Of a stretch of 64,000 nucleotides of DNA, positions 2,166 through 64,000 are shown piece by piece. The notes under the pieces are model-generated. The model did no database searches and had not been told where the DNA came from. It worked only from the letters and a program-made list of their open reading frames with translations. How positions within the stretch are numbered: position 1 is the first letter of the stretch; each line of letters opens with the position of its first letter. The stretch lies in assembly GCF_004010195.1 (NCBI RefSeq), contig NC_057758.1, forward strand, positions 5,632,936 through 5,696,935. The letters are read 5' to 3'. Both the position numbers and the translations under genes were made by a program. Source of the stretch: Chiloscyllium plagiosum. Lineage: Eukaryota.

Positions 2166-2809
2166 TGTTAAATGAACCAACCGCCCAGAAATACTCACTT
2201 CCCCTCGTAATCTGTTAAACTTTGAGTGACATAGAACTCCCAAATTCCACCATTAAAAAAGAATGTATACTTTTACTCTAAATGTGAACAGGAACACAAC
2301 TATGCACAACTCTAATCACACCCATCAACCCTCACCTGCTTGTTATCTGCTTCCAAACCTATAATAATATACTGTTCCAATCCAATAAAACACTGACAAA
2401 AACTAACAGCAATTAATTGCAGAGACATACAGAGTGTGATCTTTGCTGTCTTTCTTCCTTTGGCAAGACGTTCTCCCTGGGTGGACTTCTGTCTTTTACT
2501 GTGAATACGTTTCATATGGAAAGATACCCTTGATAACGAGTATTTCATATGGCAGTTGCTCTGTCTGACTTTCAAACTGCTTATCTTTTTTTGATCCCGC
2601 AGAACTGGATTGTCTTATTGCTTCAATGCTGGCAAAATAATAAACGCAAACTCGATTGAGTTTTACTATCCGGGTGCATAGTTTCACCTGATTGGTTAAA
2701 TGTGTACTGTGTCAAAATTGCAACCAAATCAGGTGTTTATTTCACAGCCAAATGTTACATATTTTCAATTTTCCAGTACAATCTGGGACTGGAAGTCAAT
2801 CGCATGACA
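2166..2809 (-). mobile_element. Gypsy LTR, inverted copy of the LTR at 55317-55982, lacking its last ~26 bp
   Basis: Reverse complement matches 55317-55956 and starts TGTCATG at 2809. Confidence 0.75.
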
Positions 2810-3334
2810 AGTGCTTGTAAGCTCTCAGTCCTAAACACCATTCACTTTCTAAAAGCCACAGTACCCACCTTCAACTTCATATTGATACTCAGTAACCTGG
2901 CCTCCACAGTCTTCGGTGGCAATGAATTTATTGACTCAGTATTCTTTGGCTGATGAAGTTTCTCCTTATCTCCGTTACCTTCAGCTCAAACATCCTCCCT
3001 GATATCCCATGCTTCAACAATTTCCACTCCTGCCCATTCCCAGATATGACCCAGTTCACCATTTGTGGCATGCCTTCAGCATCCAGAGACGTCATCTGTA
3101 AATATCCCACCATTACACTATCTGTCACCCTCTCCTCTTCGAAAGCTGCCATGACTCGTGCCACTTCAAGAGAGCAGTTGGTCTCTTGCTCCTAATATCT
3201 ATTCCATTGATTCGCTATGAAAATCATCTTTCATGTATTACCACAACAAATCATTTGAGACATTATAACTTAATCATCAACGATTCGATTTATGCTAATC
3301 CCTTTTTATCCACTCACGTCTCATGTGACTTGGG

Positions 3335-4170
3335 CTGAGTACACTGGGAGAATTGTCTAACTTTCTTCGCCTTCCCCAGCTTTGATAGTCTCAAGGGGAA
3401 CATTGTGCACTTCTGTGGTTTCATTCTACCTTGGGCAGACCACACTAGCAGCAGTGTGCACTCCTCAGGTCCCAATCTGCATTGGACAGACCAAACTTGG
3501 AGCACTGTGTAATCGTCACTCACCAAACTATATTGAGAAAACCACACTGTGAGAACTATGTAATACTGAGTTCCCAACCTACTTTGAGCAGGCCACACTG
3601 GGAGAAGTTTGTAAATCTCACGTCCCAGTCTATATTGAACTGACCACATTGGGAGCACTGCGTAATCCTCAGTTCCAAACTGCATTTAGTAGAGCACATT
3701 GGGAGCAGTGTACGATTCTTATGTCCCTATCTACCTTGGAGAGATCACACTGGGAGCACTGCATAATCCTCAATTCCCAATCTACATTTAGCAGGCCACA
3801 CTCTGTGATCGTCATACACCAAAGTAGACGGAGAAAACCACACTGTGAGCAATGGGTAATCCTGAGGTCCAAACCTACTTTGAGCAGACCACACTGGGAG
3901 CAGTGTTTTGTCCCCACGTCCCAATCTTCATTGGACAGACAACAATGGGAGCAGTTTTCATTCCTCAGGTCCCAATCGATATTGTGCAGACCACACTGGG
4001 AGTACTGTGAATTTCTCAGGTCCCAATATCCGTTTGACAGTACACACTGGGAACACTCTGCACACTTTAGGTTCCAAATATATTATGCAGACCAGACCGC
4101 GAGCAGTGTGGATACCTCAGGCCCTAATCTACATCGGGCACAAAACACTGGGAGCACTGGACACTTCTCA
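3335..4170 (+). repeat. 51-bp minisatellite derived from the CR1 ORF2 'LVRPHLEYCVQFWSP' segment
   Basis: A ccacactgggagcactg-like motif recurs every 51 bp (~3593, 3644, 3695, 3746; 3889, 3940, 3991). The unit aligns by eye with the CR1 at 44363-44411. Confidence 0.85.
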
Positions 4171-4171
4171 C

Positions 4172-4407
4172 CTCCCAAAATCCATTCAGCAGCCGTATCC
4201 CTCAGGAAGATGTTGTTCTGTCGCATCCAACGGCGGATGAGAAGCCAAAGTATTTGCATGTTAGGATCGTTGCATGTTAGGATCGTTGCTGCATCAAGTA
4301 ATGAGTGGCGCAACACAGAGGGTGGCAAACCTCCCACCCCCTCCGCACACAGTGTGATCCCTTTAATCGTCTGAGTTATGGTGATAGCGATGTCTGTCAT
4401 TCAGGCA
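4172..4407 (-). pseudogene. Candidate antigen-receptor V-exon remnant (FR1-FR2), 3' part replaced by the minisatellite
   Basis: Reads TDIAITITQ. With one copy of a 16-bp tandem duplication (atcctaacatgcaacg) removed it gives TILTCKYFGFSSA, then after a frameshift WMRQ...AEWILG. This fits the V pattern LTC..GF..W.RQ..EW. Confidence 0.45.
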
Positions 4408-4509
4408 CTTATAGATCAGGTGTAACCGCAGCCCCTTGCTCCAGTGATTTCAGGATAAATTTAATAATGCTTACTGTATTAAATAGTGCCTTTTGATTAC
4501 CTTTACTTT

Positions 4510-5009: not shown

Positions 5010-5012
5010 TGC

Positions 5013-5147
5013 AGATGGTACCTGTAACAAGGAGGGCGGTTCATTCTCGAATATCCAGGCAGGGGGCAGTTATTACGGCAAAGCCAAAATCATCGGGATA
5101 ATGCCAGATGAGAGGAAAACCACGCGGGTAGGGAATGTAGTTAATGA
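5013..5147 (+). repeat. ~135-bp inverted repeat, arm 1 (partner 6105-6239)
   Basis: agatggtacctgtaacaagg...aaaatcatcgggataatgccagat...ggaaaaccac matches the reverse complement of 6105-6239. Confidence 0.85.
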
Positions 5148-5539
5148 TGTTAAACCAAAATAGGAAGGCGGTCCACACGGTGTAGTGCGGCATATCAAGA
5201 GAAATATACTTCTGTGGGGAGGAAAATTACAAACGACATTTAAATCCCTAAATTAACAACAGTATGTTCCAGACTGTTTCAAGAGGTCAAAAATAAACAC
5301 CACCTTATAGTGACCGTCCAATCCTCACTGGATACGACGATGGTGTTTGACGACTGGAGAAGGGCAAACATTGCAGTTTTGTTTAATATAAATCAAGGGA
5401 GAGACTGAAGAGTTGAGGTTGTAATTCTGAGACAAAGGTAAAACGGTCGCTGAGGAAGTCTGAGAGACTCCACGACAGTCGGTTTGGATTTATTCAAGGA
5501 AGATCGTGTGCAATTAATCTGACTGCTGGTTTGAGACAG

Positions 5540-23873: not shown

Positions 23874-24191
23874 TTTTCCAGGCAACACTGGTTAGTAAGG
23901 TTACAATTGCATACAAACTTGGCTAGAAAGTTGGAGCGAGGTGGTGGTGTTAGATGGTTGTTCATCAGACTGGAGGCCAACGACCAGCGGTGGATCCACT
24001 TCTGTTAATCTGTTACATGAAGGATTTTGTTCTTTTCCAGGCAACACTGGTTAGTAAGGTTACAAATGGATACAAACTTGGCTTGAAAGTTGGAGCGAGG
24101 TGGTGGTGTTAGATGGTTGTTCATCAGACTGGAGGCCAACGACCAGCGGTGGATCCACTTCTGTTAATCTGTTACATGAAGGATTTTGTTC
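23874..24191 (+). repeat. Tandem duplication, 2 x 159 bp, inside the old CR1
   Basis: 23874-24032 and 24033-24191 are nearly identical. Confidence 0.95.
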
Positions 24192-44741: not shown

Positions 44742-44918
44742 ACATTTCGTTCTTGCAGATTTGTTCCCCATCTGTTAGCAATATTTTCTCTCAAAGTTCT
44801 CTTTTATCGCATAAGACGACATCTTATTATCATAAGATGTCGTCTTGTGCAATAAAATACGTTTGAAAGAAAATATTGCTTACAGATGGGAACCAAATTG
44901 AGCAATCAACGAATTTGT
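44742..44918. mobile_element. ~177-bp imperfect palindrome, MITE-like
   Basis: Arms cccatctgttagcaatattttc..ataagacgacatcttat and ataagatgtcgtcttgt..gaaaatattgcttacagatggg; loop ~4 nt. Confidence 0.8.
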
Positions 44919-44929
44919 GACAACAGAGG

Positions 44930-45184
44930 TTAGTGATGTTTGCTATGTGAGATAATATACATCTTTTCGCGATGACTACAGCAACTAAAACTTTCCTCAG
45001 TTGTATGCTTCTGTGAGTCAAGTTTCAGGACCATCGATTTGTTTCTCCAGAGAATCTTATCCGACCACACAGGTTGTGAGCTGACATCAACATTAGTGTG
45101 GGGAGATCTGGCAAAGAATTCACTTCGTGCATTCATGAACTTTTCTGTTGAATACTCTGAGATTCACGGAGGATGGTTCACATT
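44930..45184 (-). pseudogene. Ig C1-like exon remnant E
   Basis: Strong acceptor tatttctgctttcag. Phase-1 start (E)CEPSSVNL..*ILCQIS, then TNVDVS...SMVLKL...EESFSC. Confidence 0.45.
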
Positions 45185-45360
45185 CTGAAAGCAGAAATAT
45201 AACAGAAGAAAAAATCTACACCATTGCATAGCCAGCTGGACAAGTTTTCATTCTCAGCATTTTGTTTGGGAAGCTGCAATGAATAGGCAAAGTCATAACT
45301 GAGATCGGGAGACAGTGGTTATAAAGAATGCAATCAAAATATCAGAATATATTCACTTAC

Positions 45361-45706
45361 CCGTAAGACAGATCGTACACTTTTAGGCCCTGAGCAACTA
45401 TCAGAGGTGGTGAGTCACCATGTATCTCAAACACTCAGTTGTTAGTTAGTTGGCATGGGCAAAACTCAAATCAATTGATGAAGATGCATAAAGTGTTCCT
45501 GATACACAGGAGAAGGCGACATAGCCCAGAGAACAGTAATATCGCCAGCTTTCTTGAAATACTGAGACCAACATTGCCGAGTGAATGTCGGGACATGGGA
45601 CGTTTCGGAGTTCAGAGCAAGGACAACCACCACAGTGTGAGGTTCTCAAGATGCAGGAAAGGAACAGCTTAGATAGCTGCGAATTCTGTCGTAGTTCTGC
45701 TGCATT
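45361..45706 (-). pseudogene. Ig C1-like exon remnant D (346 bp)
   Basis: Acceptor tatgttacag, donor gtaagt (45355-45360). Reads (E)CSRT..ENLTLWWL and SGTLYASSSIDLS...RYMVTHH. Confidence 0.5.
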
Positions 45707-45967
45707 CTGTAACATATAGAATGCTCTCACCGTGTTGCAGTGAGAACATTCAGCTTTGTGCTGGCCTCACACTCGTGCAAAATCAATTGTATACCTTTTC
45801 TATTCGGGTCATGAAAGCTGTTCTGACCCACACAGTTCAGAAGTACATCAATTACATTAACAAAGAGAGTCAATGATGATAGAAAGGCAAATAACTTCCT
45901 GAGGCAACAGGTCTCTAAGAACTGGCATTTCCTCGGTTTGTTATAGTTTTCATAGTTTCCACATTAC

Positions 45968-46300
45968 TCTCATCTGCGGAAAGACGATCTATGTAAGTAA
46001 TTCGGACGAAAGGGCACCAATAATACGCTGGCAATTGCAAATATACGTTTAGTGTCGAAATACTCATATTTCCACATGCATACTGATCTGTGTAGTCTTA
46101 ATTGTAATTCTGCCTACGTAGCACTCTCTGGGCTCACGTAGTAACCTTTGGTTCCGTTTCATTCGCTGTGCTTGCTGAGATTGAGGAGCATGGGCTGTAT
46201 GCTCCAGGAAGAAAATTGCTTCCGCGCTGGTCAACCAGTTTTGTTGATATGTGCTTTAATCATGACTGGGTAAATGACCGAAATAATCTGAGGGAGTGCC
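45968..46300 (-). pseudogene. Ig C1-like exon remnant C
   Basis: PQIISVIYP and STKLV....SNFLP. The paralogous copy (62.8-63.0 kb) gives ATKAELQLRLHRSNTGSV..TC. Donor-like gtaatg at 45962-45967. Confidence 0.4.
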
Positions 46301-46611
46301 ATGTGGGAGAGTGTTAGATTGAAGATGACAAATTACTATATTTCGGAAGTGCATTCACTCAATCTCACAAACCCTCTGGTTTCGTGGTGGAACAATTAGT
46401 GTTATGTATTCTCGAGTTTGGTTCACAGTTTAGAATCTCCACCACATTCTAACCTCAAAACTACATCTCTCCCGGTTATGCTTCCCATTTTTTAAACATG
46501 AGAATCACTTTAATGACTAGAAAAAAATGAAGGAGTGTACGGTCTTACAGCGATGAAGAGAGTCAGAAAGAACCTGAAGTGTAATCCCAAGAATAAAAAA
46601 AAACATCTTAC

Positions 46612-46924
46612 TGTTTGTGATTGCGGGTAATTTTGACCTGGTGTGGTCAACATTCTCAGTGATACTTTTTGGTATCAGATGTATCGTTCGGAATGCCAGT
46701 CAATGTCATTACTTTGTGCCAGAATAGGGCTTCTTGCTGCAGATCCTCAGCTGCTGAACAGAGCCTGCGCTGTATGCTGTGACCCAGACTACATTCAGAC
46801 AGCAGCTGAAGATTGTGCTGAGTATCGTCAACTCAATCAATCGATCAAAAATCACAAATTTAATAATTAAATCCAGAAAAGTATGTATTTTAAAAAAAAG
46901 TTTGCAGCAATACGCTGCCTGTCG
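46612..46924 (-). pseudogene. Ig C1-like exon remnant B (313 bp)
   Basis: LNVVW...YSGT/KVMTLT...KKYH(C)/NVDHT, ending in phase 1 at donor gtaag (46607-46611). Resembles the Y.CNVDH end of CH domains. Confidence 0.55.
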
Positions 46925-47329
46925 CTGTATTAAACCTCTAAAGGTACTACTGGCTTGTTTCAATCTTCCAGCACAGATTATTTGGCACTTGTCGATCAGT
47001 CTGCCTACTCTGGGTTCAAAACAAAAGGAGGCATCATTCGATTGGTCTGCCATCGCGCACACTCTCACTCCCTAAAATCCTTCTGCTGTACAATTTGCTT
47101 GACTCTCTACATTCGTCTATTCCACTGGTCAACTGTATCTCTTCTTCCTTCCTGCCTTCCTCTCCATCATTGTTCACCAACTCGCTATCTCTCCATATCT
47201 CCATTGCTCTCTCTTCTTCCCTCTCGCTCTCTACTGTCTCGACAGTCAATTTTATCCAACAGCAAATAACAATTCAGAACAGGAACAACCCCTGCGCCCC
47301 CAAACCTGTGGTGATAAATTTTACATTGT

Positions 47330-48390
47330 CTTAACTTGCAGATTCTGTATTCATCCTTTCCCTTCCTAATCATGCATTCGTCCAGTGCTTCTTGAATGCT
47401 GCTGTTGTGTCTACATCCACACCTCCTCTGGTCGCCTGTTCCAGGCACTCAACACCATTTGCGTCAAAGACTTGCCTCGCAAATCTCTTTTAAAGCTACC
47501 AACAATCCCGAAACTCTCTCCACAGCACAGCCCCCACTTCCTCCAACGCCTGGAACTTGAGTCGCTTAGTAAACGGACTCTCCAAAATGTGAAAAAAGTG
47601 TCCTGAATTCCACACGATCCATGCATTCACAATTTGATAAACACCTATCAGGTCGCCCCTCAACCTCCTGCATTCCATTGAAAACAAAGCCAGTTTGCGC
47701 AAACATTCTTCACAGCTAACATTGCCAATCCCCCTAAACGTTATTGCACCGTCGGCAAAGCATTCTGGTAGTGCGGTGAAAAGAACTGTGCGCAATATTA
47801 CAAGTGTGACCTAACCAAATTTCGATAAAATTGCAGAATAACTTGTCTATACTTATATTCTTTGCCACTTCCAATGAAGGCAAGCACACCATGGGCCTTT
47901 GTCTTCAAGAATATGAAGGGCATGTTGGCGATAGAGCGAGTACAGTACAGGTTTACAGAAATGATGCATGTTCTTCCGGGTTACGGTATGAGGATTATAA
48001 AACTTAGCATTTTGACTCTAGAATTTAGAAAGGTAAAGGTTTGATGGAAATCTTCATACTGTCAATGGAGTCGGAGTGTGGGGAGGGGAAGGGTGGATAA
48101 ACATAAATTTATTTTGCGGATTGGTTATTATGGAAGTAGTGGACTTTGCGTGACATTTAGAGCCAGAGATGTTGCGAAGCACTTGTTCACATGGATGTTT
48201 GAAACGATCTTGCACAAACGAGAGTGAATTCTGGATGGGTTTTTCGACTTTTGTTGCCCAAAGACACTAGGGATTATGGGCAAAAAGCAGGAATTTGGAG
48301 TTCGGCAAGAGAGGCAACCAGTATGTCGGTAATGGTGGAATGTGCATGAAGAGCTCAACCGACTCCTCCTTTCTTGTGTTCATATGAAAC
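47330..48390. mobile_element. Old CR1 3' fragments (- 47330-47900; + 47900-48390)
   Basis: RRLRGDLIGVY, TQMVLSAWNR.PEEV and AIERVQYRFT. Confidence 0.75.
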
Positions 48391-48662
48391 TGTGCTTTAT
48401 GGCATGGAACCAGGAGTTTACTTTGTTACTTTTTCTCTCACCAATAACTGTTCTTTGACTTTCAGAGACCGGAGATAATTAACACACTGTGACCTGGAGC
48501 TGAAATCTTCAATCCATGCATTTTCGACAGAATTAGATTGGATAAGTCTCATCTGATCTTTGACATACTTATTTCAAAACCGTGAGATGACACATGAGCT
48601 CTATCCAAGTTTTATTCTTGACACTAGAGTTAGCATCGACATTTTCGGTGTGTATGCTTAAC

Positions 48663-48921
48663 CTCTGCATCAAAACCACCTATATCCAAACGACCCTACG
48701 AAGTCACAAATGCTGTGTCTGAAAAATTCCCAATTCTTCCAAGTTTCTTGTTTCCTTGAATCATTGGTCTTGAATGTCATCTTGACTTTAATTGGACCGT
48801 GCCCAATCTCTCTGCTATGGAAGTTTTCCATCGCTGGAATGGCTTTTTGTGAAGAAGCCGTTGCGACTGAACCAAACGATAGGTTCACTGACGTATGAAG
48901 AGTATTTGGAATCTTTGGTTT
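48663..48921 (-). pseudogene. Weak Ig C1-like exon remnant A
   Basis: Acceptor ctgttgtag. Reads NLSFGSVAT/GFFTK...MTFKTN.SR..ETWKN; the canonical cysteines are not retained. Confidence 0.3.
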
Positions 48922-49352
48922 CTACAACAGCCAATATGGAAAACATAATGTGGAGGTGGACTACCTTATAAATAATATAAAACACCAGCTTATAGTGCAA
49001 AAGGTTTATTTCAAAGAAACCTGTTGATCAACAACCAGGTGTTTGATGGTTAATTTTGTAAACATGGGAGAGATTGTAATGCTGATATCAATGCTGCCTT
49101 CCAGTTGCAGTTTGCATAATTCTCAATGCAGGGTTTCTGCAATTTCCACAGTTTGTGATAATCAGCCAGACTTCCACGGATCCTGATGAATTTTTTTAAA
49201 GATATGGGAGGGATTTCGTCATGGTACTGTTCTTCCGGGCCTATCCAGTAGTTGGAGGAATGATGGTGGGCAATGGATTTGAAATAGTGTCTTTTTCGCT
49301 GGCCTGGCATCGGGCTGATGTAGGTTAACTCCTGGTCTTCTCCCAAAGGGAT

Positions 49353-49955
49353 TGTTATGGTCCGGATCATACCAGACAATCGCCAAATAGTTTAAGGTTG
49401 CTGTCTAAACAGGATGGTTTCCTTATTTTAAGGCAAATGTAAGGCACCATGTTCCAGATACGAACTTAATGGTTCAATAACTCAACATTAAGCAAAACGC
49501 AATTTATTCAAACACTATCGTTAAAAGGCAAAGGCCAAATGGAGAGCTGAGGATCACTTTAATCCATTGGGAAATTTAACAGTGTGTTGGATACATTAAA
49601 TCTTACTGATGAACTGTTCTAATACAGTAACATGCCATGAACACACCTCTTCGCAAAAAACGCAAATTTAGAAGTCAGAGTTCCTCACATGCAACGTCTG
49701 CAGCAGAAAGGGAAACACCACCTTCTGGCTGTACACGCGAGCGGGTGAAAGATCTCTTCTACTTCTGCTGAATTTAAGAACTAAAAACAATCTAGAAATC
49801 CTAACCTGTGAGACCAGGACCCACCCATCCAGGCTACATATATTGTTCCAGCTATTTATAAAACCAACGCTTTACAAGCTATTTACAATACCACGGATAG
49901 TTCTGCGCCTCTGGTTCAATCTATTTCTAAACAGGCACAATGGTACAGTACACAA
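49353..49955. mobile_element. Probable solo LTR (related sequence at ~51990-52495)
   Basis: Begins TGTTATG and ends ...CA; shares an A-rich/acaccc..ggcaa..caaatt layout with 51990-52495. Confidence 0.4.
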
Positions 49956-52912: not shown

Positions 52913-53588
52913 TATCGCACTCTCCCTTACGGGCACATAGACACACTAACACAATCGTGCTCATGCACAAACACACACACACACGCAGAGGGCTAGCTCC
53001 AACGCGAATCTGTTAAAGGGACAGTTCTGTCACGGAGATCTGCAATCAAGGAATTCAAAGAAAACGTGGATCTTCCTCAGTTGAGGAAGTGGGTTGAACG
53101 GTATTCTGTGGGATGTCTGCTCTGAAACAGAACATCCCCAGGATGTTGACGAACGAGGACAATGCATTAGGTGTAAAATATTATTCCGCTACGAGGAATA
53201 GTAGAGCGACCACATTTCAAATGGGCCCTCAGAATCTCTGTGCTGCCATATCGCACTCTCCCTTACGGGCACATAGACACACTAACACAATCGTGCTCAT
53301 GCACAAACACACACACACACACACACACACGCAGAGGGCTAGCTCCAACGCAAATCTGTTAAAGGGACAGTTCTGTCACGGAGATCTGCAATCAACAATT
53401 CAAAGAAAACGTGGATCTTCCTCAGTTGAGGAAGTGGGTTGAACGGTATTTTGTGGGATGTCTGCTCTGAAACAGAACATCCCCAGGATGTTGACGAACG
53501 AGGACATTAGGTGTAAAATATTATTCCGCTACGAGGAATAGTAGAGCGACCACATTTCAAATGGGCCCTCAGAATCTCTGTGCTGCCA
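52913..53588 (+). promoter_or_regulatory. Tandem duplication (336 + 340 bp) of a candidate V-gene promoter/leader start
   Basis: Units 52913-53248 and 53249-53588. Each has (CA)n, the palindrome cttcctca-gt-tgaggaag (GAGGAAGT ETS-type motif), an ACCACA RUNX-type motif and an ATG (53221, 53561). The duplication is certain; the regulatory role is inferred. Confidence 0.5.
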
Positions 53589-53955
53589 CTCTCCTGTTCA
53601 TACAAAATACGTTGATCGGATTCAGAAAGTAAAGGTAATCAAGAGGCACTATTTAATGCAGTAAGCATTATTAAACTTATCCTGAAATCACTGGAGCAAG
53701 GGGCTGCGGTTCCATCTGATCTATAAGTGCCTGAATGACAGACGTTGTTATCACCATAACTCAGACGATTAAAGGGATCACCCTGTGTGCGGAGGGGGTG
53801 GGAGGTTTGCCATTTTCTGTGTTGCGCCACTCATTACTTGATGCAGCAACGAGCCTAACATGCAACGATCCTAACATGCAAACGGCTTCTCATCCGCCGT
53901 TGGATGCGACGGAACATCTTCCTGAGGGATACGGCTGCTGAATGGATTTTGGGAG
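53561..53955 (+). pseudogene. Candidate leader plus V-exon remnant (inverted paralog of 4172-4407)
   Basis: MGPQNLCAATLLFIQ (53561-), ~100-bp intron-sized spacer, AG at 53726-53727, then TDVVITITQ...LTC(K)/GFSSA/WMRR...EWILG. Confidence 0.45.
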
Positions 53956-55956
53956 GTGAGAATTGTACAGTGTTCCCAGTGTTTTCTGCCCGATGTAGAT
54001 TAGGGCCAGAGGTATCGAAACTGCTCCCGGTCTAGTCTGCATAATATATTTGGGACCTAAAGTGTGCAGAGTGTTCTCAGTGTGTACTGACAAACGTATA
54101 TTGGGACCTGAGAAGTTCACAGTACTCCCAGTGTGGTCTGCACAATGTCGATTAGGACCTGAGGAATGAAAAGTGCTCCCATTGTTGTGTGTCCAATGTA
54201 GATTGGGACGTCGGGACTATACAATGCTCCCAGTGTGGTCTGCTCAAAGTAGATTTGGACCTCAGGATTACCCATTGCTCACAGTGTGGTTTTCTCCGTC
54301 TACATTGGTGTATGACGATCACAGAGTGTGGCCTGCTAAATGTAGATTGGGAATTGAGGATTACGTTGTGCTCCCAGTGTGATCTCTCCAAGGTAGATAG
54401 GGACATAAGAATCGTACACTGCTGCCAATGTCCTCTACTAAATGTAGTTTGGAACTGAGGATTACGCAGTGCTCCCAATGTGGTGAGTCCTATGTAGACT
54501 GGGACGTAAGGTCTACAAACTTCTCCCAGTGTGGCCTGCTCAAAGTCGGTAGGGACCTCAGTATTACATAGTGCTCATAGTGTGGTTTTCTCAATATAGT
54601 TTGGTGCGTGACGATTACACAGTGCACCAAGTTTGGTCTGTCCAATGTAGATTGGGACCTGAGGAGTGCACACTGCTGCTAGTGTGGTCTGCCCAAGGTA
54701 GAATGAAACCACAGAAGTGCACAATGTTCCCCTTGAGACTATCAAAGCTGGGGAAAGCGAAGAAGGGTTGACAATTCCCCCAGTGTGCTCGGCCCAAGTC
54801 ACATGAGACTTGAGTGGATAAAAAGGGATTAAGAAAAATCGAATCGTTGATGATTTAGTTATAATGTATCAAATGACTTGTTGTGGTAATACATGAAAGA
54901 TGATTTTCATAGAGAATCAATGGAATAGATATGAGGAGCAAGAGACTAACTGCTCTCCTGAAGTGGCACGAGACGTGGCAGCTTTCAAAAAGGCGAGGGT
55001 GATAGATAGTGTGATGGTGGGATATTTACAGATGACGTCTCTGGATGCTGAAGGCATGCCACAAATGGTGAACTGGGTCAAATCTGGGAATGGGCAGGAG
55101 TGGAAATTGTTGAAGCATGGGATATCAGGGGGGATGTTGAGCTGAAGGTAACGGAGATAAGGAGAACCTTCATCAGCCAGCGAGTACTGAGTCAATGAAT
55201 TCATTGCCACCGAAGACTGTGGAGGCCAGGTCACTGAGTATCGATATGAAGTTGAAGGTGGGTACTGTGGCTTTTCGAAAGTGAATGGTGTTTTGTACTG
55301 AGAGCTTACAAGCACTTGTCATGCAATTGACCTCCAGTCCCAGATTGAACTGGAAAATTGAAAATATGTAACATTTGGCTGTGAAATAAACACCTGATTT
55401 GGTTGCTATTTTGACAACAGTACACATTTAACCAATCAGGTTAAACTATGCTCCCAGATAGTAAAACTCAATCGAGTTTGCGTTTATTGTTTTGCCAGCA
55501 TTGAAGCAATAAGACGATCGAGTTTTGCGGTAACAAACAAAGACAAACAGTTCGAAAGTCAGACAGAGCAACTGCCATATGAAATACTCGTTATCAAAGG
55601 TATCTTTCCATATGAAACGTATTCACAGTAAAAGACAGAAGTCGACCCAGGGAGAACCTCTTGCCAAAGGAAGAAAGACAGCAAATACCTCACTCTGTAT
55701 GGCTCTGCAATAAATTGCTGTTAGTTTTTGTCAGTGTTTTATTGGAACAGTATATTATTATAGGTTTGTAAGCAGATAACAAGCAGGTGAGGGTTGATGG
55801 GTGTGATTAGAATTGTGCATAGTTGTGTTCCTGTTCACATTTAGAGTGAAAGTATACATTCTTTTTTAATGATGGAATTTGGGAGTTCTATGTCACTCAA
55901 AGTTTAACAGATTACGAGCGGAAGTGAGTATTTCTGGGCGATTTGTTTATTTAACA
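53626..55956. repeat. Inverted segmental duplication, arm 2
   Basis: Reverse complement of 2166-4509. Confidence 0.95.
53960..54795 (-). repeat. 51-bp CR1-derived minisatellite (paralog of 3335-4170)
   Basis: ctcccagtgtgg recurs at a 51-bp period. Confidence 0.85.
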
Positions 55957-62476: not shown

Positions 62477-64000
62477 GCTACGAATTCTGTCGTAGTTCTG
62501 CTGCATTCTGTAACATACAGAATGCTCTCACTGTGTTGCAGTGAGAACATTCAGCTTTGTGCTGGCCTTACACTCGTGCAAAATCAATTGTATATCTTTT
62601 CTATTCGGGTCATGAAAGCGGTTCTGATCCGCACAGTTCAGAAGTAAATCAATTACGTTACCAAAGAGAGTCAATGAAGTTAGAATTGCAAGTAACTTCC
62701 TGAGGCAACAGGTCTCTAAAAACTGGCATTTCCTCGGTTTGTTATAGTTTTCATAGTTTCTATATTACACTCATCTGCGGAAAGAGCATCTATGTAGGTA
62801 ATTCGGACGAAAGGGCACCAATAATACTCTGGCAATTGCAAACAGACGTTGAGAGTCGAAATACTCATATTTCCACATGTTTACATAGAGACGCTGCCAG
62901 TGTTTGATCTATGTAGTCTTAATTGCAATTCTGCCTTCGTAGCACTCTCGGGGCTCACGTAGTAACCTTGATGCTGTTTCATTTTGGTTCTGTTTAATTC
63001 GCTGTGCTTGATGACATTGAGGAGCATGAGCTGTATGGTCCCGGAAGAAAATGGCTCACGCGCTAGTCAACGAGTTTTGTTGATAGGTGCTTTAATCATG
63101 ACTGGGTAAATGACCCGAAATAATCTGAGGGAGTGCCATGTCGGAGGGGGTTAGATTGAAGATTTCAAAGTACTGTATTTTGGAAGTGCATTCACTCAAT
63201 TTCGCAAACCCTCTGATTTCGTGGTGGAACAATTAGTGTCATGTATTCTCGAGTTTGGTTCACAGTTTAGAATCTCCACCACATTCTAACCCCAAAGCTA
63301 CATCTCTCCCGTTTATGCTTCCCATTTTTTTAAACATGAGAAACACTTTAATGACGAGAAAAAACATGAAGGAGTGTACGGTCTTACAGCGATGAAGAGA
63401 GTCAGAGAGAACCTGAAGTGTAATCTCAAGAATAAAAAATGTCTTACTGTTTGTGATTGCGGGTAATTTTGACCTGGCATGGTCAACATTGTCAGTGATA
63501 TTTTTTGGTACCAGATGTATCGTTCGGAATGTCAGTCAATGTCATTACTTTGTGCCAGAATAGGGCTTCTTGCTGCAGATCCTCAGCTGCTGAACAGAGC
63601 CTGCGCTGTATGCTGTGACCCAGACTACATTCAGACAGCAGCTGAAGATTGTGCTGAGTATCGTCAAATCAATCAATCGTTCAAAAATCACAAATTTAAT
63701 AATTAAATCCAGAAACGTGTATTTGTTTTTAAAAATTGCAGCAATAACGCTGCCTGTCGCTGTATTAAATCTCTAAAGGTACTGCTGGCTTGTTTCAATC
63801 TTCCAGCACAGGTTATTTGGCACTTTTCGATCTGTCTGCCCACTCTGAGTTCAAAATAAAAGGGGGCATCATTCGGTAGGTCTGCCATCACGCACACTCT
63901 CACTCCCTAAAACAATCTGCTGTCCAATTTGCTTGACTCTCTGCATTCGTCTATTCCACTGGGCAACTGTATCGCTTCTTCCTTCCTGCCTTCCTCTCCA
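62477..64000 (-). pseudogene. Duplicated Ig C1-like exon remnants B' (63448-63759), C' (~62770-63140) and the 5' stub of D'
   Basis: Paralog of 45677-47166. KKYH(C)NVDHA is read from tatcactg(a)caatgttgaccatgcc. Confidence 0.5.

Follow-up and report, generated by a model that had tools for sequence, protein, structure and literature searches.

The question posed by this locus is whether the minus strand between 48.9 and 44.9 kb of the window (the whole 64-kb stretch of Chiloscyllium plagiosum DNA that was analyzed) holds the remains of an immunoglobulin heavy-chain (IgH) constant-region gene. A preliminary description had read four exon-sized segments there, and a weaker fifth, as C1-type exons of one old pseudogene. 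The peptide motifs it quoted were located in minus-strand translations near the positions given for them; the fossil of four or five exons did not survive analysis, as segments 1 and 2 lie antisense to what is very probably a class A GPCR exon and segments 1, 2, 4 and 5 are at chance in a C1 motif test. With moderate confidence, the region is read here as a mosaic of dead gene pieces, consisting of the GPCR exon and a C1 relic of one or two exons, set in a part of the shark genome where duplications abound. The window itself is vertebrate DNA full of repeats; it is interrupted by three gaps and contains several duplications of its own segments, and its features in and around the region are collected in Table 1.

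Table 1. Positions and strands of the features discussed, numbered from the first base of the window.
Feature	Position	Strand	Remarks
Decayed class A GPCR coding exon (very probable), copy A	~45870-46870	+	Many stops and frameshifts; ends approximate; best support at 46596-46850 (TM6-TM7-helix 8)
Duplicate of 45676-47166	62477-64000	+	90% identity; GPCR copy B at ~62670-63700; truncated by the window end
Segment 1 of the preliminary description	46924-46612	-	Antisense of GPCR TM6-helix 8 plus 3' flank
Segment 2 of the preliminary description	46300-45968	-	Antisense of the central part of the GPCR exon, putatively the TM2-TM4 region; inside the A/B unit
Segment 3, probable decayed Ig C1-type exon	45644-45361	-	Phase-1 acceptor; pins C25-W40-L70-W76-C84 in one frame; 4 stops
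Segment 4, possible second C1-type exon	45184-44884	-	301 nt; acceptor rich in pyrimidines; codon 25 is Cys; donor GTAAG; resembles C1 by eye
Fifth segment of the preliminary description	48921-48663	-	Multicopy flank; Ig-exon reading without support
LINE fragment, 3' of the GPCR exon	47390-47970	-	tblastn against the RT ORFs of the window, E down to 2e-15; read-depth peak
Palindrome, MITE-like	44759-44898		Adjoins the end of segment 4

Contigs from public runs of two organisms were aligned to the stretch at 80% likeness (the shares of its words in these runs were ~0.4 and ~0.1), and 44.8-49.1 kb was multicopy throughout in both. The LINE fragment is presumably CR1-type. RNA reads from 2% of one run gave 26 matches, 24 of which aligned partially and none of which reached 99% likeness, and a second RNA run, sampled at 6%, gave no reads matching the stretch. 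Neither the GPCR piece nor the probable Ig relic codes for protein at present, and nothing in the region gave an indication of function.

The plus strand at ~45.87-46.87 kb is very probably a class A GPCR pseudogene, an assignment on which several lines agree. The plus frame of the window, ILLFVIAGNFDLVWST ... GFLLQILSC*TEPALYAVTQTTFRQQLK, contains a TM6 aromatic motif, a TM7 motif of the N/D-P-x-x-Y type and a helix 8 at the correct spacing. When 46602-46850 was searched against the PDB, all seven matches were class A receptors over TM6-TM7-helix 8, with weak E-values (0.54-3.5) that stem from two distinct receptors, the octopamine beta2 receptor (E 0.54) and another represented by six chains (E 1.2-3.5); unrelated PDB matches for other segments reach E 0.33-1.8, and each GPCR E-value taken singly is at noise level. 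A PDB search with a profile of copies A and B returned class A GPCRs in two of three matches. With a generic TM6/TM7/helix-8 motif scan, composed after the sequence had been inspected, copies A and B ranked 1st and 3rd among 386 peaks, scoring 58 and 57 against a maximum of 56 across 20 shuffled windows. Hydrophobic stretches were found on the plus strand at 45922 (TM2-like), 46068-46126, 46217 and 46605-46690, although their count (7, against a background mean of 4.8) was not above background, and the 5' extent of the exon was judged by eye. The Pro of the putative TM5 (46455) was present in copy B and in every contig listed.

Other searches for the receptor were blank: neither 7tm nor any other Pfam family was matched by 16 plus-strand translations, the GPCR frame drew no match in two homolog searches, and metagenome and viral contigs yielded nothing when scanned by DNA pattern and by locus. 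No D/E-R-Y/F motif of TM3 was recognized in the exon, and no first exon was identified by eye within 44.9-45.9 kb. The pseudogene may be GPR139/142-like, from a subfamily known from annotated shark genomes, and may belong to a chondrichthyan expansion. No GPR139/142 chain was among the PDB matches to the GPCR frame, and no paper reporting a shark GPR139/142 expansion was found in the accessible literature; the available portions of PMC6504862, PMC8455134 and PMC11979771 do not mention one, and those of PMC8455134 describe cartilaginous fishes as relatively poor in GPCRs.

The receptor frame is also favored by the copies of this sequence. Summed contig depth at 46672-46815, which should not be taken for a copy number (individual contigs in this interval have depths of ~5-15), was 5048 and 4154, compared with 85-990 in non-repeat bins, and was similar to that of LINE bins. 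The core of this high-copy family, 46773-46821, coincides with TM7 of the GPCR exon. Translated by hand, the loose-end consensus flanking the core keeps the plus-strand frame and reads through it without a stop: before 46773 the TGA of the window is replaced by a Cys codon and a TM7 motif N-x-x-I-Y results, while the same consensus places a TAA in the minus-strand LNVVW frame of the preliminary description; after 46821 the consensus stays in the GPCR frame. Support is moderate to good for the exon being a dead member of a family with several hundred copies. The possibility that the high-copy core is a snoRNA or another kind of ncRNA was rejected, as four Rfam matches in 44.7-50 kb were all far below gathering thresholds.

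The second copy of the fossil announced in the preliminary description does exist: 45676-47166 and 62477-64000 are 90.4% identical on the same strand. It is, however, a copy of the GPCR unit, which covers segments 1 and 2 only and ends at 45676, 32 bases short of segment 3. Copies A and B have in-frame stops in common, and of 85 codons 2 show synonymous and 8 show replacement changes between them; gene death therefore preceded the duplication.

Segments 1 and 2 are ruled out as Ig exons, as both coincide with the antisense of the GPCR exon. The GTAAG donor of segment 1 at 46611 consists of Ile-Leu-Leu codons of TM6 read on the opposite strand, and the AG acceptor at 46924 is preceded by 9 pyrimidines in 17 positions. 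More generally, GTAAG donors are present as described at 46611, 45360 and 44883, but their abundance is near background: 10 GTRAG donors fall within 44.8-49.1 kb on the minus strand, where the strand mean is 1.73/kb. All five segments were scored with a frameshift-tolerant chain of five short C1 motifs, fixed before scoring, against a background of 273 tiles (median 36, 95th percentile 50). Segment 1 scored 42 and 43 and segment 2 scored 35 and 31 (copies A and B, respectively), segment 4 scored 35 and segment 3 scored 58, leaving four of five at background and segment 3 alone above the 95th percentile, in a test of limited power (simulated C1 exons with 30% substitutions exceeded that percentile in 14-34% of 200 trials). 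The fifth segment, proposed as a further Ig exon, scored 32, which is background, and its Ig reading, considered by eye, was dropped as unsupported. A secretory tailpiece after segment 4, also considered by eye, was likewise unsupported.

Library searches for Ig were single-frame searches on decayed sequence and are weak negatives. No Ig family was matched by 31 minus-strand translations in Pfam, where stray matches were to DUF5745 (E 0.12) and DUF4495 (E 0.011). No Ig chain was matched in eight minus-strand PDB searches, one of them in an unintended frame and none in the pin frame of segment 3 described below; the matches to SopA-like, GGA1, INPP5K, HKR3 and RNR beta chains were rejected as noise (E 0.33-7.9). 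A word-indexed homolog search and a complete HMMER search across 1.84 billion proteins, both using the earlier frame for segment 3, gave no Ig match, an ESM Atlas search gave no usable lead, and AlphaFold single-sequence models had pLDDT values of 36 and 45. At protein level, none of ten minus-strand segment pairs scored higher than the best shuffle; at DNA level one pair did, by a single point. With strict patterns, no RSS or V motif was found in the window, nor was a convincing J motif, and Pfam searches of six upstream minus frames, an insensitive scan, were blank. A run of at least three consecutive C1-set exons, as for an IgH gene, was not found, with segments 1, 2 and 5 at background.

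Segment 3 differs from the other four, and it is probably a real Ig C1 relic. Its acceptor was placed at 45644, where 15 of 17 positions are pyrimidines, and not at 45706 as described earlier (9 of 17); the boundaries of segment 4 were likewise corrected to those in Table 1. In the phase-1 frame, segment 3 reads EPHTVVVVLALNSETSHVPTFTRQCWSQYFKKAGDITVLW, followed, with four stops, by QLSV, Trp and Cys, and contains the pin residues of a C1-set domain, namely B-strand Cys, C-strand Trp, E-strand Leu, E-F Trp and F-strand Cys, in the canonical C1 geometry, with 59 residues from Cys to Cys. The anchored Ig tests and the pin pattern were devised after inspection of the exon. In the splice-anchored motif scan, segment 3 ranked first among 641 exon candidates (56, against a best score of 55 in 12 shuffled windows), and the C-W-L-W-C pattern behind a phase-1 acceptor occurred once in the window and was matched in 9 of 300 shuffled windows. 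An unanchored Ig score of 58 was reached by 18 of 20 shuffled windows, and a second, unanchored pin match, of which 0.25 are expected per window, lies at minus 49876. Pfam returned no family for the pin frame, searched as a single frame with stops as X. As an exon, segment 3 is short (284 nt, where ~300-330 nt are usual for C1); read in the pin frame, its donor falls in phase 0, with just 11 codons left beyond the second Cys and the His of V-x-H missing. The frame quoted earlier, with V-T-H and a phase-1 donor, is another one; decayed C1-type sequence is probably present in segment 3, in a frame other than that of GTLYASSSIDLS..MVTH, and maybe in segment 4. The C-terminal motif in that other frame may be due to chance or may be a sign of a deletion.

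Paralog contigs cover segment 3 at 85-94% identity in both organisms, one of them at a depth of 353. Among the 40 variants listed of 856 in total, that at 45466 turns a pin-frame stop into Cys in all paralog contigs listed, and that at 45614 places a Pro where the first strand closes, as read in the pin frame, and abolishes a stop of a different frame as well. In one of the two organisms, the alignment of a 503-base contig begins at 45364, at the donor edge of segment 3. The contig of depth 353 has an apparent one-base gap at 45524, which would break the pin frame.

For segment 4, the chances of its being a second C1-type exon on the minus strand are judged about even, mostly by virtue of its adjacency to segment 3. 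It ranked 213th of 1359 in the splice-anchored scan, its exon-like layout is common (such a pair occurred in 212 of 300 shuffled windows), and its C1 reading, with the Cys at codon 25, requires frameshifts. Segments 3 and 4 did not clearly resemble one another (their protein score of 38 was reached in 3 of 60 shuffles). Together they are possibly what is left, in two exons, of an Ig constant-region gene.

Against the mosaic stand three other readings. One of them, that there is no Ig sequence whatever but a GPCR pseudogene with multicopy intron or flank, in which segments 3 and 4 resemble C1 exons by chance, is rather unlikely. It would account for the blank result of every library search for Ig, for the pin match at minus 49876 and for the want of clear similarity between segments 3 and 4; it is also in line with the ease with which mutually exclusive Ig-like readings were made by eye on the same bases, as with segments 1 and 2. 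Read antisense, a decayed GPCR exon can pass for Ig sequence, both in its motifs and in its phase-1 splice sites, and this calls for caution. On the other side, the anchored pins, rare as they are among shuffled 64-kb windows, fell inside the very 4-kb minus-strand stretch that had been flagged, segment 3 came first among its exon candidates, and in paralogs a stop is reverted and an alignment edge meets the donor. The single IgH-like pseudogene with four or five consecutive C1 exons at 48.9-44.9 kb is very improbable. The motifs and phase-1 GTAAG donors on which it was built exist, segment 3 is C1-like and the motif test is weak for very old fossils, yet it is already strongly contradicted by the position of segments 1 and 2 within a plus-strand GPCR exon whose high-copy family has a stop in the Ig frame, by background chain scores for segments 1, 2, 4 and 5, by the lack of any RSS, V or J motif match that would support an Ig cluster, and by the failure of all ten minus-strand segment pairs to exceed the protein-level shuffle maximum.

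We also consider it improbable that segments 3 and 4 are a broken copy from a multicopy Ig-C1 family that is still alive or was so until recently, and that need not be IgM, IgW or IgNAR. The paralogs of segment 3 in both organisms, the depth of one of them, the contig alignment that ends at the donor and the common variants that remove a stop would fit such a family; the apparent gap at 45524, which breaks the pin frame in the deepest contig, does not, and introns and other flanks are multicopy too, as would hold for a plain duplicon. Likewise given a low probability is the proposal that the two segments are a broken copy from a carpet-shark Ig-C1 lineage that is multicopy and unannotated, separate from IgM, IgW and IgNAR and perhaps related to UrIg, and that intact members of it exist elsewhere or in other sharks; two related genomes contain tens of copies that are 82-94% identical.

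The preferred mosaic could have arisen as follows. Birth-and-death duplication in a very large receptor family would have left a dead GPCR copy, whose death came first and whose duplication to 62.5-64 kb followed. The Ig relic and the receptor piece may have been joined head to head near 45.68 kb by rearrangement or insertion, and the joined neighborhood may then have been amplified further via local segmental duplication, with LINE, Penelope-type and palindromic elements inserting around it. In the portions of PMC8692893 available, Chiloscyllium plagiosum is credited with 37 IgM clusters and 7 IgNAR clusters, and because 3 of the 7 IgNAR clusters in this bamboo shark are incomplete, orphan Ig pieces are to be expected in such genomes. 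As it stands, the locus matters little, being one further dead receptor copy and a small, probably real Ig-domain relic. Sharks are the key group for early antigen-receptor diversification, according to the part of PMC12227049 consulted, and if a two-exon relic of an undescribed Ig-C1 lineage were indeed present, it would bear on that diversification.

Compared with known class A GPCRs, the plus-strand exon shares the TM6 F-x-x-x-W, the TM7 N/P-x-x-x-Y and the helix-8 F-R in both pattern and spacing, and its TM7 core is present at very high copy in two shark-type genomes. Unlike living members of that class it is dead, with multiple stops and frameshifts. Compared with elasmobranch IgH constant genes, the Ig relic has at most two exons, and no V, J, RSS, TM or secretory exon was found with it; it abuts an unrelated GPCR piece. 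The incomplete Ig clusters of carpet sharks are, from what is available of PMC8692893, recognizable by homology, whereas the present relic is far more decayed. By eye, identity is about a quarter, which is the generic C1 level. In IgM, IgW, IgNAR and UrIg, each domain is encoded by one exon with a phase-1 acceptor, and segment 3 is likewise built. In fig. S3, the portion of PMC12227049 used for this comparison, three of three UrIg2 C domains have 59 residues from Cys to Cys by count; the pin spacing of UrIg2 C1-C3 is the same as that of segment 3, and short matches to UrIg2 C3 were seen by eye at the first Trp and in the E strand.

Copies A and B of the decayed plus-strand class A GPCR exon were compared, and across TM7-helix 8 they differed at 4 of 200 bases (46667-46866 in A, 63503-63702 in B), a divergence below that over their whole length (~7 per 100). 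On these sequences, gene conversion between the copies at TM7-helix 8, across the high-copy core (the multicopy family stretch on TM7 of copy A), is possible.

In the possible Ig C1-type exon at 45184-44884, the minus-strand peptide QPVWSDKILW (45067-45040) resembled the 5-phosphatase motif of INPP5K in a PDB search (E 0.33). Its second Trp was absent from paralogs (contigs from two organisms aligned at 80% likeness), and the resemblance was put down to chance. Another C-W-L-W-C pattern, the C1-type Ig pin arrangement, was seen on the minus strand at 49876-49690, with its first Trp within GTIYVAW and no qualifying splice acceptor; the expected number of such unanchored patterns was 0.25 per window.

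Repeats and palindromes in the window
Feature	Coordinates	Size	Identity	Remark
Inverted duplicate	2166-4509 and 53626-55956	2.3 kb	94%	
Tandem duplication	23874-24191	159 bp	98%	near-perfect
Tandem duplication	52913-53588	~340 bp	94%	near-perfect
Palindrome	44759-44898			flanks region under study (44930-48921)
Palindrome	48977-49047			second flanking palindrome; inside very high-depth bin, adjoins RT fragment 49050-49391

The inverted duplicate contains a 51-bp tandem array (~14.6 units) in which both strands have long open frames, and the duplicate's flank has an older, 67% copy at 61.0-61.5 kb. A short plus-strand open frame of coding-like appearance lies directly behind an assembly gap (5010-5163). 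Both tandem duplications may be assembly artefacts. The RT fragment is presumably Penelope-like.
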